Translations under genes and position numbers: made by a program | Source of the DNA: a virus | IMG/VR virus record: IMGVR_UViG_3300027863_000006 | Length of the DNA: 44,751 nucleotides | Strand: one strand, 5' to 3' | The notes under the pieces: generated by a model | What the model was told of the DNA's origin: nothing | The model's input: only the letters and a program-made list of their open reading frames with translations | Database searches by the model: none | Shown here: in pieces, positions 690-44,751 of the stretch | Layout: the number at the start of each line of letters is the position of its first letter | How positions within the stretch are numbered: position 1 is the stretch's first letter

Positions 690-1124
690 CTAAATTGGGA
701 TTTCTACCTCAACTTCACCATCCTCACGTATCAGGATAGGTTCCCTTTGCTGATATTCCCTCCAAGTTTTGGGGGAGAATAGGTAGATTATTCTCCCGGC
801 GACCTGCACGCTATTGCAGGCAACGATATCCTCAAGCAGACAAGGGATGCACATCAAACCTCCGGTTACTTTGAAGAGAGGTATGCCACTGTAAGAGTCT
901 GCAGTCCACACGTGGAAGGATTTAGGATATCCCCCCTCCTCAATCATATCTTCGCTATCCTCAAAATACACCTTATCTAACTTGAGGGGATAGTATTGGT
1001 AAGGGGAATAGAACCTATATGCATCACTTGTATACACAGGTTCCTCTACGGCAAGCTCCTTTATGAAGAAGGGAGCCTTCCTATATGCAGGAAGAAGTTC
1101 GTGGTTAATCTTTTCAATACACAT
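690..1124 (-). CDS. Hypothetical protein, fifth gene of the Ubl-conjugation operon
   Basis: 144-aa ORF with RBS GGGAG 5 nt before the ATG. It is the last gene before the operon terminator. It contains an internal ...IPLFKVTGG(88-89)LMCIPC... motif. No family was recognised. Confidence 0.6.
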   Translation of the reverse strand: MCIEKINHELLPAYRKAPFFIKELAVEEPVYTSDAYRFYSPYQYYPLKLDKVYFEDSEDMIEEGGYPKSFHVWTADSYSGIPLFKVTGGLMCIPCLLEDIVACNSVQVAGRIIYLFSPKTWREYQQREPILIREDGEVEVEIPI

Positions 1125-1241: not shown

Positions 1242-1943
1242 TCACTTCAACCACCTCCTCTCCTTCCAAAGGGCAACCTCATCGTCGCCTTCAATATCGG
1301 ATAGGTAAAGGTCATCGAATGGGTCAGTTTTGGGGGTAGCTGGGGGGATGGTATAGTAAGCAGGTTTGACCTTAGTAATCTTGGCAAGGTATGACCCAGA
1401 AGGGGTCACTATCTCATCATCCATTATGATTTCAGGCTTAAAGCCCACATACCCCCTATCCACCGGGTAGGATATGTGGGCGTCAGTTATACTCCCATTG
1501 CAATATAGCAATGCAATAGGAAATTGGTAACAGGTAACTGTATCAGCAGAGGAAAAGTTACGGATGCCAATAGGGTGAGCGTGAAGGATAACATTCCATC
1601 CCTCTTCTCGCTTAAGGGACAGATCCTCCTTGTAATCAACGGATGAATGAGACACCTCTTGCTCGGGAACATAAATTTGCCCATCCTCTATGATATACCC
1701 ATCCTTCTCCAGATGGGCTTTGAGCAGGAACGAAAACTCTGCATGCACTGACCTCTCAAAGCCTTTACAGCGGGCTATGAGAAAAGGTGATACATGCACG
1801 ACTCCCTTGTAGAGGATTAGCCCGCTATCCTCTATGATGGGTTCCTGTGGTCTCGGGGTAAACTGACCTGAGACCCCAGCCCTGTAAAGGTTGGTGAATG
1901 GGTCTTCCTCAGGAGGTAATGTTTTAGTCCTTTTCTTTCGCAT
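1242..1943 (-). CDS. JAB/MPN (JAMM) metallopeptidase, deubiquitinase-like
   Basis: Complete JAMM motif: upstream Glu in VHAEFSFLL (E69), then H121-A-H123-PIGIRNF-S131-S-A-D134 (HxHx7SxxD). The start overlaps the last 20 nt of the E1-like gene, and RBS AAGGA lies 7 nt upstream. Confidence 0.8.
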   Translation of the reverse strand: MRKKRTKTLPPEEDPFTNLYRAGVSGQFTPRPQEPIIEDSGLILYKGVVHVSPFLIARCKGFERSVHAEFSFLLKAHLEKDGYIIEDGQIYVPEQEVSHSSVDYKEDLSLKREEGWNVILHAHPIGIRNFSSADTVTCYQFPIALLYCNGSITDAHISYPVDRGYVGFKPEIIMDDEIVTPSGSYLAKITKVKPAYYTIPPATPKTDPFDDLYLSDIEGDDEVALWKERRWLK

Positions 1944-2517
1944 AGAAGATTCCTTTCAAAAAGGCTGGTACATCTGTTGTTAGGATTTTTTCCTCATTGA
2001 AATCCATTCCTTCCAGTGCCCTTGCTACCAGAAGGGTGGCAATTAGAACTGGTGGGACGATATAAGAAGGGGTTATTGTGTATCCTCTGCGGGGTCTATC
2101 ATCTGAAGAGTCTATGACCTCAGCACGAGGATTGGTGTGAAGGGTAAACCCCTTCCCGTTATATCCTCCCATCATTTTGACGTTTGGGATGGGAGGGGTA
2201 AGGACATCCCGGCAATCGAAGACCTCACCATCCAAAGGCTGTCCGTTCCAATTAGGATGAACATATACCTGTACAGCCTCACGGTGCTCATAGAGGACTT
2301 TAGAAAGGGCATAGGTTTTCTCCATCCCAACATCATCTAAATGGAAAGGCGTCCTATTGAGGTTAGTCCTATCCACATAATCGCTATCCCAAAGGTGTAT
2401 CTCAGGTACACCCGCTAATGCGAGGAATAACGCCGTCCAAGAACCAACGCCACCACATCCTATGACATGGGCTCTCTGCGGGATGTTTAGTTGAAGTGTC
2501 CTTTGTCGGTTATACAT
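1924..2517 (-). CDS. ThiF/MoeB/E1-like adenylyltransferase (minimal E1)
   Basis: Rossmann P-loop VIGCGGVGS. DSDYVDRTNLNRTPF matches D.D.v..sNLnRq. GMEKTYAL, VFDCRDV (the vlDctDn equivalent) and the C-terminal helix PPVLIATLLVARALEG are also present. I set the start at M20 of the tracked ORF: GGAGG lies 6 nt upstream, and the ATG overlaps the E2 stop as ATGTATAA. Confidence 0.8.
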   Translation of the reverse strand: MYNRQRTLQLNIPQRAHVIGCGGVGSWTALFLALAGVPEIHLWDSDYVDRTNLNRTPFHLDDVGMEKTYALSKVLYEHREAVQVYVHPNWNGQPLDGEVFDCRDVLTPPIPNVKMMGGYNGKGFTLHTNPRAEVIDSSDDRPRRGYTITPSYIVPPVLIATLLVARALEGMDFNEEKILTTDVPAFLKGIFYAKEKD

Positions 2518-3406
2518 ATTGTACCTCCGAATCACATTCCTCTTCAAGGTCAATATACTCGGCAAACTTCTCATCCTCTATCCAGTAGTCGGGACTAAAA
2601 CAGGAGTCAAAGTTTGCTGTTTTGAGGATTTCTGGGAGCCTTATCCCCTCGATGATGGGTTTCCCATAGAATTCTCCGACACATATACCATAGCCTAAAT
2701 CCTCCATTCCAAACCTCACATTGGGATGATGTGCCTCTTGGGCAAATACATTGAATATCCTGTGGGTGAGGGGGATGGTAAGGCGGTTAATATACAGGTC
2801 TACACCAACTTGTAGTGGGTAAATGCGTCCCTTAAAAATAGCCTGGGTTGACTGTATCCTTTTTGGGTAAACCAACAAGGTAATTTCCTCATCATCAACA
2901 GTCCTTGTCCTGACCTCCCATCCTGCACTCAAGTAGGCGGACAAAATCTTGGCTACAGCAGGATATGTAGTTTCTGAGGGGTCAGTAATAATTGAGGTCA
3001 ACAAGGGAATTGCCTTCGCTCTCTTAAGTTCCCAAATAAACCAGACAAGCCAGGAATGAACATACCCCTCTGGACGAACGTGAAGGTAAATATTATGGGA
3101 TGCATCCTCTACCATGAAAACGTCATCAGTGTAGCGGTCCTTCCATATCCTGAGAATGTGAGAGGACAATTCAGGGGAAAGAAGGTCAACATCGTGGAGT
3201 AAGGAAGCCTTAAATGGACATCTCCTTCTCAGGGTAGATAACTTCTTCCCCACGCGTAGGGCGGAATAAGGTAGTAGCTCTCCTATTTCCTCTATATCAA
3301 AGATGTTGTTTTCCAAATACACCTTATCTTTCCTATCCTCTATGGAGCCTGTGTCGCTCCACATGATGCTGTATCCTAATTGGTTAATCAGTTCCTTTGT
3401 TTCCAT
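2510..3406 (-). CDS. E2-like (UBC-fold) protein with an uncharacterised N-terminal domain
   Basis: The C-terminal part carries the E2 hallmark HHPNV(227-230)RFGMEDLGYG-IC(242)VG, that is HPN followed by a Cys. Before it lies a beta-rich F.G..YPL.V segment. About 150-200 aa at the N-terminus have no recognisable motif. RBS GGAGG is present, and the gene is translationally coupled to the E1-like gene. Confidence 0.55.
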   Translation of the reverse strand: METKELINQLGYSIMWSDTGSIEDRKDKVYLENNIFDIEEIGELLPYSALRVGKKLSTLRRRCPFKASLLHDVDLLSPELSSHILRIWKDRYTDDVFMVEDASHNIYLHVRPEGYVHSWLVWFIWELKRAKAIPLLTSIITDPSETTYPAVAKILSAYLSAGWEVRTRTVDDEEITLLVYPKRIQSTQAIFKGRIYPLQVGVDLYINRLTIPLTHRIFNVFAQEAHHPNVRFGMEDLGYGICVGEFYGKPIIEGIRLPEILKTANFDSCFSPDYWIEDEKFAEYIDLEEECDSEVQYV

Positions 3407-3430
3407 TTTTCCTCCACATTATTAAGGAGC

Positions 3431-3476: not shown

Positions 3477-3716
3477 CTATTTCGCCTCGTTATATTCAGC
3501 GAGGATATATGTTCCCTCGCTGAGTGGGTAAGAGGATGCTGTTACATACCCCCCATCCTCTTTTTGAAGGGTAAATAATTTGAATCCCAGCTTGCGAGCA
3601 AAAGCTCGTACTTGTTCCCTTTCCACTGGGGGAGTTAGAACCTCTTCGTCGTTCCCGTGACGGATAACGACCTTCGAGCTATCCTCGATACCTGATGATT
3701 CAACATACTCTTGCAT
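3477..3716 (-). CDS. Small ubiquitin-like (beta-grasp) protein candidate
   Basis: 79 aa from the ATG at 3716, with RBS AAGGAG 7 nt upstream; the tracked TTG start at 3743 is less likely. The pattern KVVIRHGNDEEVLT / VEREQVRAFARKLG / FKLFTLQKEDG / TYILAEY fits beta-beta-alpha-beta-beta. It is the first large gene of an E2/E1/JAB operon. It ends in ...AEYNEAK with no terminal Gly. Confidence 0.5.
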   Translation of the reverse strand: MQEYVESSGIEDSSKVVIRHGNDEEVLTPPVEREQVRAFARKLGFKLFTLQKEDGGYVTASSYPLSEGTYILAEYNEAK

Positions 3717-3838: not shown

Positions 3839-3875
3839 ATTATGTATCCTTTCAAATTGTTCAACATGCGATATA

Positions 3876-3904
3876 AATATAATATAATAGAATTGCAAAA
3901 ACAA
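3876..3904 (-). promoter_or_regulatory. Sigma70-like promoter of the Ubl/E2/E1/JAB operon
   Basis: The minus strand reads cacTTGTTTttgcaattctattatatTATATT. -35 is at 3899..3904, -10 at 3876..3881, spacer 17. The alternative TTGCAA-N17-TATATC is overlapped. The module matches the promoter at 506..534. Confidence 0.5.
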
Positions 3905-3905
3905 G

Positions 3906-3924
3906 TGTCCAGTTTTGTATACAC
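3906..3924 (-). repeat. Sixth, inverted iteron copy
   Basis: The reverse complement gtgtatacaaaactggaca matches the 21-bp iteron gtgtatacaaaaaaggaca at 17 of 19 positions. It lies between the divergent promoters at 3876..3904 and 3980..4008. Confidence 0.7.
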
Positions 3925-4050: not shown

Positions 4051-4884
4051 ATGTTGAAAACACCACTATTTTACTATGGGGGCAAGCTTTCCAGGCTTCA
4101 TAGTCTTTTGGAGATGATCCCCCCACATCGGATTTATGTTGAAGTCTTCGGAGGCTCGGCTGCTTTGTTAATAGCAAAAGAGCCCAGCGAAGTTGAGGTG
4201 TATAATGATATTGACCTTAATGTTGTGAACTTTTTTAGAGTACTACGTGAGCCAGCAAAATTTGTTAAGCTGTACAATATGTTGACACTAACCCCAGTAA
4301 GTCTCTATGAGTTTACAGAAGCCAAGAAAACATTGCCATTTGAAGCCGATGATGTGATGAAAGCCTACAAGTTCTTTATAGTGAACAGGCAAAGCTTTTC
4401 TGCTGCAATGCAAACTTGGGCAAGAGGTATTTCGTTCTCTATAAGAGATATAGGTAAGCTACCAGCGACATGGCTCAATGCTTTAACAAGGTTAAGCTTA
4501 ACAGCTGAGCGGTTAATGAGAGTACAAATAGACAATGTACCATTTGAAAGAGCATTTGAGCTATATGACACAGAGGAGACATTCTTTTATTGTGATCCCC
4601 CCTATGTTGCAGAGACAAGACGTTCTAAGCAAGTTTATCCCAATGAAATGAGTGATGAAGACCACAAGAGATTCTTAAGTATTGTCAACAGAGTTAAAGG
4701 CAAAGTTCTTATTTCAGGCTATGATTCAGAACTCTATAACACAAATCTCAGTATTGGCTGGCAACGTAAAGAATTTTCATCCCACGCATCCGCCGCAGGT
4801 AGGACAAGACAGACTGGCTATATTGGCAATAACAGCACAAATAACAAACAACAGCGAGTTGAAGTGCTCTGGTGGAATTATTAA
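4051..4884 (+). CDS. dam: DNA N6-adenine methyltransferase, D12 (Dam) class
   Basis: N-terminal YYGGK, SAM motif VEVFGGSAAL, NDID, and the catalytic FFYCDPPYV (DPPY). Confidence 0.9.
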   Translation: MLKTPLFYYGGKLSRLHSLLEMIPPHRIYVEVFGGSAALLIAKEPSEVEVYNDIDLNVVNFFRVLREPAKFVKLYNMLTLTPVSLYEFTEAKKTLPFEADDVMKAYKFFIVNRQSFSAAMQTWARGISFSIRDIGKLPATWLNALTRLSLTAERLMRVQIDNVPFERAFELYDTEETFFYCDPPYVAETRRSKQVYPNEMSDEDHKRFLSIVNRVKGKVLISGYDSELYNTNLSIGWQRKEFSSHASAAGRTRQTGYIGNNSTNNKQQRVEVLWWNY

Positions 4885-4988: not shown

Positions 4989-5240
4989 ATGTTGACACGA
5001 AAGGATTACCGAAAGATTGCAGATGAGTTGTGTAAAATTAACCCCAATATGTGGATGTGGCGTGAATGCCCTGAGGCTGAGGTTGCGGGTGTTCTGCTTG
5101 GATTTCTATTTAAGCAGGAGAATTTCGACTATCAGAAATTTTACGACTACGTCCGCAAGAGAAACGAGAAAATAGGAGACCTCATTAGTATGTACCACGC
5201 AAACATGTATTTCAAAGGTCATACGGAGGGGACAAGATGA
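4989..5240 (+). CDS. Hypothetical protein
   Basis: ATG at 4989 with AAGGAG 7 nt upstream; the tracked TTG at 4983 is less likely. The stop overlaps the next start. Confidence 0.6.
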   Translation: MLTRKDYRKIADELCKINPNMWMWRECPEAEVAGVLLGFLFKQENFDYQKFYDYVRKRNEKIGDLISMYHANMYFKGHTEGTR

Positions 5241-5662
5241 TACTCAAAGAAAACCTCAACGAGAAGATCACAGGTGCTCGTGATATCTATAACCTCATAG
5301 TTTCCATACTTGCCACGGAGAATGAGGTTGATCAGAAGAAAGAGCATTATTGGGTGATTGGGACAGACACCAAGGGCAAGGTACTCTATGTTGAACTTGT
5401 GACCCTTGGTATCCTCGATGAGTGCACAGTCCATCCAAGAGAGGTGTTTAGGTTAGCGATTCAGAAGGCTTGTAAGTGGATGTTTCTCGTCCATAATCAT
5501 CCATCAGGTGATCCTGAACCAAGCAGACAAGATGAGCGAAACCATGTGCGGATGGTGGGCGTGGGAGATCTTGTGGGAATCCCTGTGAGGGATGAGCTGA
5601 TAATCGGTGCAGGTAGGTATTACTCATTTCTTTCAACAATGGTTGAGGAGGTTGATCAATGA
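5237..5662 (+). CDS. radC: RadC-like JAB-domain protein
   Basis: HPREVFRLAIQKACKWMFLVHNHPSGDPEPSRQD matches the RadC/UPF0758 signature (HNHPSG..PS..D). IPVRDELIIG corresponds to the family's vlDHiIvg motif. Confidence 0.85.
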   Translation: MILKENLNEKITGARDIYNLIVSILATENEVDQKKEHYWVIGTDTKGKVLYVELVTLGILDECTVHPREVFRLAIQKACKWMFLVHNHPSGDPEPSRQDERNHVRMVGVGDLVGIPVRDELIIGAGRYYSFLSTMVEEVDQ

Positions 5663-44467: not shown

Positions 44468-44650
44468 TTATTGGCGTGGTTGTTCGGTGGGTAAATTTTC
44501 TTCAAGCTCCTCAATAAGAAACGTAACATCCTTCAGTGCTTTTCGAATTTCGTTTAGCTGTCCGTTTAAACGAGTGAGTTTGACCTCAAATTGCGATACG
44601 AGGTCTTCAACGAGTTGGACGCTGGCTTTCAGTTCAACTAGGTCAATCAT
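44468..44650 (-). CDS. Small coiled-coil protein
   Basis: 60 aa (LVEDLVSQFEVKLTRLNGQLNEIRKALKDV). GGAG lies 7 nt upstream. The start overlaps the stop of ORF 19..402 across the circular junction as ATGATTGA. Confidence 0.6.
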   Translation of the reverse strand: MIDLVELKASVQLVEDLVSQFEVKLTRLNGQLNEIRKALKDVTFLIEELEENLPTEQPRQ

Positions 44651-44751
44651 TGTTAATCTCCTTCACATCGTCTGCAATGTGTGAATGTTTGACCGCATTC
44701 CGTGCTGACTTGCCGGAGAAGTCAATACCAAGCTGCCGTGCGAGGTCAGCA
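44625..44751. repeat. Second copy of the terminal 127-nt overlap
   Basis: Identical to 1..127. Confidence 0.9.

Follow-up and report, generated by a model that had tools for sequence, protein, structure and literature searches.

A phage-borne ubiquitin-like protein family with a conserved lysine-ended tail, encoded together with E2-like, E1-like and JAB-like proteins

A C-terminal glycine is generally taken to be a near-universal need of modifiers activated by E1 enzymes, whether in eukaryotes, in archaea, among the sulfur carriers or in the bacterial Bil, Bub and CBASS systems. Type I and Type II Bil operons encode a four-part kit of a beta-grasp ubiquitin-like protein (Ubl), a Cys-dependent E2, an E1 and a JAB protease, and serve bacterial anti-phage defense (Chambers et al., 10.1101/2023.09.26.559546; Hor et al. 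2024). The Bil E1 has an inactive and an active adenylation domain, a zinc site and a helical insertion that carries a Cys; some Bil Ubls have several domains, and those of Type II extend by up to nine unconserved residues beyond a Gly that is universally conserved, an extension that the JAB removes (10.1101/2023.09.26.559546). In the Bub pathway, an E1 with conserved Tyr residues but no catalytic Cys is fused to a JAB, a minimal UBC-like E2 uses a Ser (oxyester), and the Ubl, which is processed by a JAB, ends in a conserved Gly (G229; PMC11601596). The CBASS enzyme Cap2, an E2-E1 fusion with cysteines of both the E1 and the E2 kind, acts on a cGAS-like enzyme instead of a beta-grasp protein; the Vibrio cholerae cGAS ends in Gly, and the JAB Cap3 cuts exactly after the last residue of the C-terminal tail. 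The ThiS/MoaD-ThiF/MoeB and SAMP/UbaA systems pair a small beta-grasp carrier ending in Gly-Gly with a small homodimer-type ThiF-fold enzyme and have no E2. Finally, the E1-fold enzymes MccB and PaaA adenylate carboxylates other than that of Gly (a C-terminal Asn or Glu side chains), so the fold can take other residues; they act on short peptides via an N-terminal peptide-clamp domain and cyclize their substrates, with no E2 or JAB partner.

Here we analyze a 44,751-nucleotide stretch of viral DNA (IMG/VR record IMGVR_UViG_3300027863_000006; the window), which an earlier note, made from the letters alone, had read as carrying a Ubl candidate without a C-terminal Gly beside E1 and JAB genes. 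An exact 127-nt repeat at its two ends (1-127 and 44625-44751) shows that it is a complete phage genome of about 44.6 kb, circularly closed or terminally redundant, and terminase, portal, major head protein and primase/helicase genes are present. The Ubl gene is the first of a co-oriented set, and genes for a 298-aa protein, a ThiF-family protein, a 233-aa protein and a 144-aa protein lie downstream (Table 1). Its open reading frame begins with the ATG at 3716, which is preceded by AAGGAG 8 nt upstream and agrees with the N-termini of homologues (alignment A3), and it closes with a TAG stop. The final residues of the product are ...SEGTYILAEYNEAK (AEYNEAK). The terminal Gly of E1-activated modifiers is thus absent, as the earlier note had it, and YNEAK stands at the end; the sole Gly-Gly (G55-G56, in KEDGGYV) is internal, again in agreement with that note, and sits in the loop joining strands 48-52 and 57-58 of an AF2 model. 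No family match was found for the Ubl in Pfam, PHROG, PADLOC or NCBIfam, and the string EYNEAK had no match among the relevant papers searched.

Table 1. Genes of the Ubl operon and the tail codons of the Ubl in the window.
Feature	Coordinates	Strand	Size	Remarks
Ubl	3477..3716	minus	79 aa	Predicted beta-grasp protein with YNEAK tail; ORF with ribosome-binding site, AF2 fold, homologues
Tail codons Y75-N76-E77-A78-K79	3480..3494	minus		Family signature in place of Gly-Gly; table of 32 tail units
E2-like protein	2510..3406	minus	298 aa	UBC-like C-terminal half (about 148-298), H227-P-N229, C242
ThiF/E1-like adenylating enzyme, minimal	1924..2574	minus	197-216 aa	Pfam ThiF 7e-17
Predicted JAB/JAMM metalloprotease	1242..1943	minus	233 aa	Intact E...HxHx7SxxD
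Fifth gene	690..1124	minus	144 aa	Co-oriented, outside the conserved system

The AF2 model of the Ubl, built on the 15-sequence alignment A3, has a mean pLDDT of 80. It contains strands at 16-20, 23-27, 48-52, 57-58 and 68-74 and a helix at 33-43, giving the beta-beta-alpha-beta-beta-beta topology of a beta-grasp fold. The best Foldseek rows from the PDB were ubiquitin, SUMO, UBX domains and a bacterial Ubl (8tyx), at E values of about 3e-3 to 1e-2 and TM scores of 0.5-0.63. VIA re-alignment of the model gave Z scores up to 7.4, with ubiquitin, SUMO, UFM1 and UBX as the top matches, and the neighbors of the protein's own ESM Atlas model include MoaD/ThiS, UBX, YukD and PB1. These results bear out the beta-grasp fold, for which the earlier note had proposed structure prediction as a check. 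In the VIA alignments, model residues 14-79 cover ubiquitin 1-76 and UFM1 4-83, and residues 12-79 cover Smt3 22-98 and SUMO1 20-97, so that K79 falls at the position of the terminal Gly of these modifiers. Five residues (Y75-K79) lie past the last strand (68-74), and four do so in ubiquitin. In the model, in which the tail is flexible as AF2 tails are, K79 therefore occupies the place of the terminal Gly in ubiquitin, SUMO and UFM1.

Relatives of the Ubl were collected through several searches, for which alignment A1 was too diverse to scan loci. An exhaustive HMMER search returned relatives with a single domain and the ends EYNEAK, PHHEAK, EYNEAKGR and EYNENA, as well as a 222-aa protein on an ENA contig (P0003) that consists of three head-to-tail Ubl units, each ending in EYNEAK. 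Among the other HMMER matches, P0004, P0005, P0008 and P0011 look like repeat-driven false matches and were set aside, and P0006, with its apparent ...EYN end, is a gene cut short by the end of its contig. The Ubl alignment A2 retrieved 11 loci from JGI metagenomes and no relatives from GTDB genomes or IMG/VR. When the latter two were scanned with the E1 alignment A5 instead, three MAG contigs came up (one each from Sulfurovum and Ignavibacteria, one unclassified), along with full-length relatives on about 15 viral contigs of IMG/VR. No match came from scans of IMG/VR with single E2-like and single E1 proteins or from blastn of the operon against INPHARED phages, and a word-indexed protein search with the Ubl or the 298-aa protein returned the query alone. 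A DNA-pattern scan of IMG/VR for K-E-Y-N-E-A-K gave 62 loci, all of them chance matches within unrelated proteins. A different ThiF cluster, with at least four other shared families, was seen in about nine IMG/VR viral contigs of 55-60 kb (L169-L175).

We tabulated the tails of 32 homologous units from 29 proteins. The common motif is [Y/F/L/H]-[N/D/Y/E/H]-[E/A/V/D]-[A/P/N]-[K/A/G], mostly [Y/F]-[N/D]-x-[A/P]-[K/A/G], in which the Tyr and Asn positions are at least 90% conserved and the E, A and K positions are equally conserved. The last position is K in 26 of the 32 units, A in four and G in two. Since the tail is common to the whole set, the missing Gly is a trait of the family and not an accident or defect of one sequence. 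The protein stops at the last motif position in half of the units (16/32), whereas 11 carry one to four extra residues (Q, F, GR, QA, GF, NC, SI, TA, KG or GRGY); these diverge even between homologues that are at least 90% identical (GR versus QA). In a further locus (L156), a 13-aa tail lies beyond the motif, and in L159 (5546-5980) the Ubl runs past EYNEAK into a 70-aa CPxC...CxxC zinc ribbon with a NEVW motif of its own, an arrangement that recalls ubiquitin-ribosomal-protein fusions. At three of the 32 tails, the next Ubl unit follows directly (two junctions in P0003 and one in L158:926-1384, which encodes two tandem units without a spacer), the tandem units ending in YNEAK or YNAAK. What follows the K at these junctions (K|SDVW, K|GDVW) matches the start of single-unit proteins, M-x-[DE]-V-W, and thus leaves no room for a spacer, as in polyubiquitin. 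As judged from the aligned tails, the family has a conserved end, and what comes after it is free to vary or can be split off, which is also the pattern of Type II Bil Ubls.

These boundaries bear on whether YNEAK is instead a propeptide, cut internally by the JAB or by autocatalysis at Asn76, such that the E1 would activate Asn76 or Ala78 in an MccB-like manner. The strong conservation of the Tyr and Asn would fit such a cut, as would the best single-sequence matches of the E1, MccB and PaaA, which act on Asn- or Glu-containing peptide ends. However, Y and N are no better conserved than E, A and K, the unconserved part begins only after K, and the tandem and fusion boundaries also come after K; propeptides beyond a Ubl end are usually unconserved. 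A cut after Asn would moreover leave two residues past the strand at 68-74, compared with four in ubiquitin, and the one homologue that seems to stop at ...EYN is the truncated P0006. The E1 evidence does not hold up either: UBA3 (5e-16) outranks TcdA, PaaA and MccB in a family-profile search, and there is no special affinity to MccB. We consider a propeptide quite unlikely, and the same observations (conserved E-A-K, boundaries after K, a short stub) speak against the suggestion in the earlier note that the JAB trims the tail, whether to ...YNEA, the example given there, or to ...YN.

Blastp and HMM searches found the Ubl, E2-like, E1 and JAB genes together in about 25 loci from metagenomes or viruses. 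The Ubl gene comes first and the JAB gene last, with the E2-like and E1 genes between them in either order; P0003, P0007, P0009, P0010 and P0012 are not among these operon-context loci. All-against-all clustering identified these four as the only families conserved across the loci. Together with the intact motifs described below, this conserved four-gene operon confirms the E1/E2/JAB setting, and suggests that the Ubl family has its own E2, E1 and JAB. The fifth gene is another matter. It is co-oriented with the operon in the same transcription unit and its product has internal GG pairs, and the earlier note allowed that it could be the real modifier; the 79-aa protein would then be an accessory. 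Yet it has no homologue in any of the roughly 25 related loci, in which the 79-aa family is always present; it has no Pfam, PHROG, PADLOC or NCBIfam match, and its Atlas model has a pLDDT of 0.33 and no beta-grasp neighbors. With neither homologues nor a confident fold, that idea comes close to being refuted, and we assign it a minimal probability. Just downstream of the fifth gene lie five direct 21-bp repeats (GTGTATACAAAAAAGGACAGAG; 535-661), and a 42-nt segment at 497-538 recurs with 76% identity at 3867-3908, the two copies bracketing the operon.

The 298-aa protein has no Pfam UQ_con match. Its residues 148-298 were modelled at pLDDT values of about 80-90, and no confident fold was obtained for the N-terminal ~147 residues. 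A VIA-wide fold search gave UBC or UEV domains in 26 of the 29 top rows (Z 5.7-4.1), including the Tsg101 UEV (Z 5.7), UBE2S (5.6) and BubB (5.2). In alignment A4, H227, N229, C242, G244, N265 and S268 are invariant, and counts over 18 sequences gave 18/18 for the His, 17/18 for the Asn and 18/18 for the Cys. A profile of the family places HPN..C on UbcH5 residues 68-87 (E 0.2-0.4). Each of these lines of evidence is modest, but all agree, and together they suggest that the protein is a member of the UBC/E2 superfamily. One relative, L071, has two adjoining E2-like paralogues of 185 and 367 aa (1758-2312 and 2317-3417), both with HPN...C; the short one is without the N-terminal half.

For the E1, the N-termini of homologues favor a start at 2517 (197 aa), with which the overlap with the E2 gene disappears. 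The family profile matched UBA3 (5e-16) in the PDB, then TcdA, PaaA, MccB, ThiF and UBA5, with none preferred, whereas a search with the single sequence gave MccB (1.2e-9) and PaaA as best matches. Since the profile has no preference for MccB, the MccB-first ranking of the single sequence is uninformative, and we dropped the argument that an MccB-like E1 implies activation of Asn. Among 22 sequences, the conserved positions are R23, GxGGxG, D63xD65, N71-L-N-R74, K86 and D120-C-x-D123. The Cys of the DCxD motif is the sole conserved Cys; there is no conserved crossover-loop Cys, and Y138 and Y165 are conserved. The DC-R-D form of this motif, which lies beside the Mg-binding Asp, occurs in 16 of 16 aligned K-ending systems (the E1 of L070 ends before the motif). 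Of the systems ending in A or G, L154 (YNEAA) retains the Arg, L075 (YDEAG) has DCCD, and DATD or DCTD is found in the three that diverge most. R122 may be a determinant of tail specificity, in a covariation that is confounded by phylogeny.

The motif of the 233-aa protein, together with weak Pfam matches, identifies it as a predicted JAMM metalloprotease. The zinc-site residues in alignment A6 are E69, H121, H123, S131 and D134, and over 21 sequences the Glu is present in all, HxH in 19 and the Ser and Asp in 19. Pfam Prok-JAB matched two of five members, at best 4.7e-4 for a relative, and the window's own protein gave E 0.16; no solved structure was matched by sequence with the JAB profile. 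A RadC-like JAB-domain protein (5237-5662; Pfam RadC 1.3e-30) in the divergent replication module is unrelated to the operon JAB.

Given a Ubl without Gly, its role could also be that of a non-covalent beta-grasp adaptor or regulator of the E1, E2 and JAB, or its flexible C-terminal Lys, a nucleophile, could be an acceptor amine to which another molecule is ligated. Beta-grasp proteins that are never conjugated (YukD, UBX, PB1) are among its fold neighbors, and the acidic-VW-acidic termini of the Ubl, E2 and JAB suggest peptide docking. On the other hand, Ala or Gly occupies the Lys position in 6 of 32 units, meaning that some members do without the side-chain amine, and no other conserved protein of the operon has a donor Gly end. 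Extensions, tandem units and a fused domain after a conserved tail are, in addition, features of processed donor Ubls such as those of Type II Bil (10.1101/2023.09.26.559546) and polyubiquitin. We regard an adaptor or acceptor as unlikely, though with a real chance of being right.

In loci L063-L074 and L154-L166, three kinds of termini carry the short acidic-Val-Trp-acidic motif itself: Ubl proteins have it at their start (MEEVWEV), as do the JAB proteins (MKDVWDSG), and E2-like proteins have it at their end (GVVWDVE, QVWEA). The window has Tyr versions, MQEYVE (3695-3716) and SEVQYV (2513-2530). From its sequence, the motif may be a SIM/LIR-like docking peptide for a beta-grasp domain or the E1.

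By features and by family scores, the Ubl/E2-like/E1/JAB system lies outside Bil, Bub, CBASS Cap2/3, PRTRC and ThiS/MoaD. It resembles Bil in its four components, in the unconserved residues after the conserved Ubl end and in its multi-unit Ubls, and, as for an established Ubl pathway, the Ubl genes are linked to those of an E1, an E2 and a presumptive deconjugating protease in about 25 loci. Unlike Bil Ubls, which keep a conserved Gly, the phage family ends in Y-N-E-A-K, and its E1 is a single ThiF domain of about 200 aa without a catalytic Cys; no sequence-family membership in Bil was detectable. With Bub, it shares an E1 in which Tyr residues but no catalytic Cys are conserved, a UBC-like E2 with BubB among its fold matches, and a JAB. 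However, the Bub E2 acts through Ser whereas the phage E2-like protein has Cys in 18 of 18 sequences, the Bub Ubl ends in Gly, the Bub E1 is fused to its JAB, and no BubE serine protease was seen with the phage system. PADLOC Cap2 models match the Rossmann part of the E1 (5.7e-14), and E1/E2/JAB chemistry on a C-terminal tail would likewise be that of CBASS, but the phage E2 and E1 genes are separate and the operon contains no CD-NTase.

The phage system also resembles ThiS/MoaD and SAMP in pairing a small beta-grasp protein with a small ThiF-fold enzyme, but differs from them in its lack of Gly-Gly and its E2-like protein. Pfam ThiS (PF02597) was not matched by the window's Ubl at E up to 1 or by 15 members at E up to 0.1. 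The best partial match of the E1 in NCBIfam was ThiF, with all NCBIfam scores far under their cut-offs. PRTRC_ThiF gave 16.4 bits against a cut-off of 144.75, and the other three operon proteins had no match among the PRTRC models (TIGR03735-03738). The likeness to MccB and PaaA would lie in the use of non-Gly carboxylates by an E1 fold, the phage E1 profile being no nearer kin to these enzymes than to UBA3 or ThiF.

Taken together, our findings lead us to propose, at a probability of roughly 0.55, that an undescribed Ubl conjugation system, borne mainly by phages, uses the 79-aa protein as its modifier, with YNEAK in place of Gly-Gly. From the gene set and its motifs, we infer that the operon would carry out conjugation as follows. 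The last motif position (Lys79, or Ala/Gly in a minority of relatives) would be the mature C-terminus, and the window's Ubl would be made already mature, without a need for trimming. The Cys-less E1 would adenylate the alpha-carboxylate of Lys79, the acyl group would then directly form a thioester with Cys242 of the E2-like protein, from which the Ubl would be transferred to an amine on a phage or host target. The JAB would take off C-terminal extensions and split tandem units in the relatives that have them, and would also reverse conjugates. Among the three readings offered in the earlier note, acceptance of a non-Gly carboxylate by the E1 is the best supported: the motif ends at K, later sequence is unconserved or separate, and K79 of the model lies on the terminal Gly. 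The beta-grasp fold stood as well, whereas trimming of the tail is disfavored and the fifth gene as modifier is not supported; the conservation of the tail was unforeseen.

We know of no E1-like enzyme that adenylates a C-terminal Lys, and an activated Lys could cyclize onto its own side-chain amine, which counts against the proposal. So does the CBASS result that replacing the terminal Gly of cGAS by Glu abolishes function (10.1101/2022.03.31.486616). An E1 that does without a catalytic Cys has its precedent in Bub (PMC11601596).

The lysine may also be conserved for its own chemistry, offering both a carboxylate and an acceptor amine that links units, or cyclizing to a lactam. MccB, PaaA and TcdA cyclize their substrates and would be the model for the lactam. 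In the linkage variant, it is a possibility that units are joined via the last residue while an activatable end is kept. To this use of the lysine as a chemical feature we give a small probability.

As regards the genomic context of the proposed conjugation system, DNA methyltransferase and primase/helicase genes neighbor the operon in the window, L166, L074 and L154, and in L159 the operon is placed between the terminase and portal genes. These phage-gene neighbors indicate that the Ubl family is phage-borne, unlike the characterized Bil, Bub and CBASS defense systems. In three otherwise dissimilar loci, the methyltransferase gene is found a short way upstream of the operon: the window (4051-4884), L166 (4276-5172) and L074 (307-1344). 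Given its position in the early/replication region beside a DNA methyltransferase, our guess is that the operon has a role in host takeover or counter-defense.

As predicted from sequence, we are thus dealing with a new Ubl family whose conserved tail ends in Lys and which comes with an E2, E1 and JAB of its own. A Lys-ended tag with an intact E1/E2/JAB set would show that the machinery is open to rebuilding around a bulky, charged terminal residue, and, if the lysine proves to be a bifunctional or lactam-forming end, it would be a Ubl chemistry without precedent that is used by phages. The natural K, A and G tail variants, with the co-varying Arg of the E1 (DCRD), offer a handle on the mechanism. 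Because phages, and not their hosts, carry the system, the family also leads one to ask which targets a virus would mark with a ubiquitin-like protein of its own.
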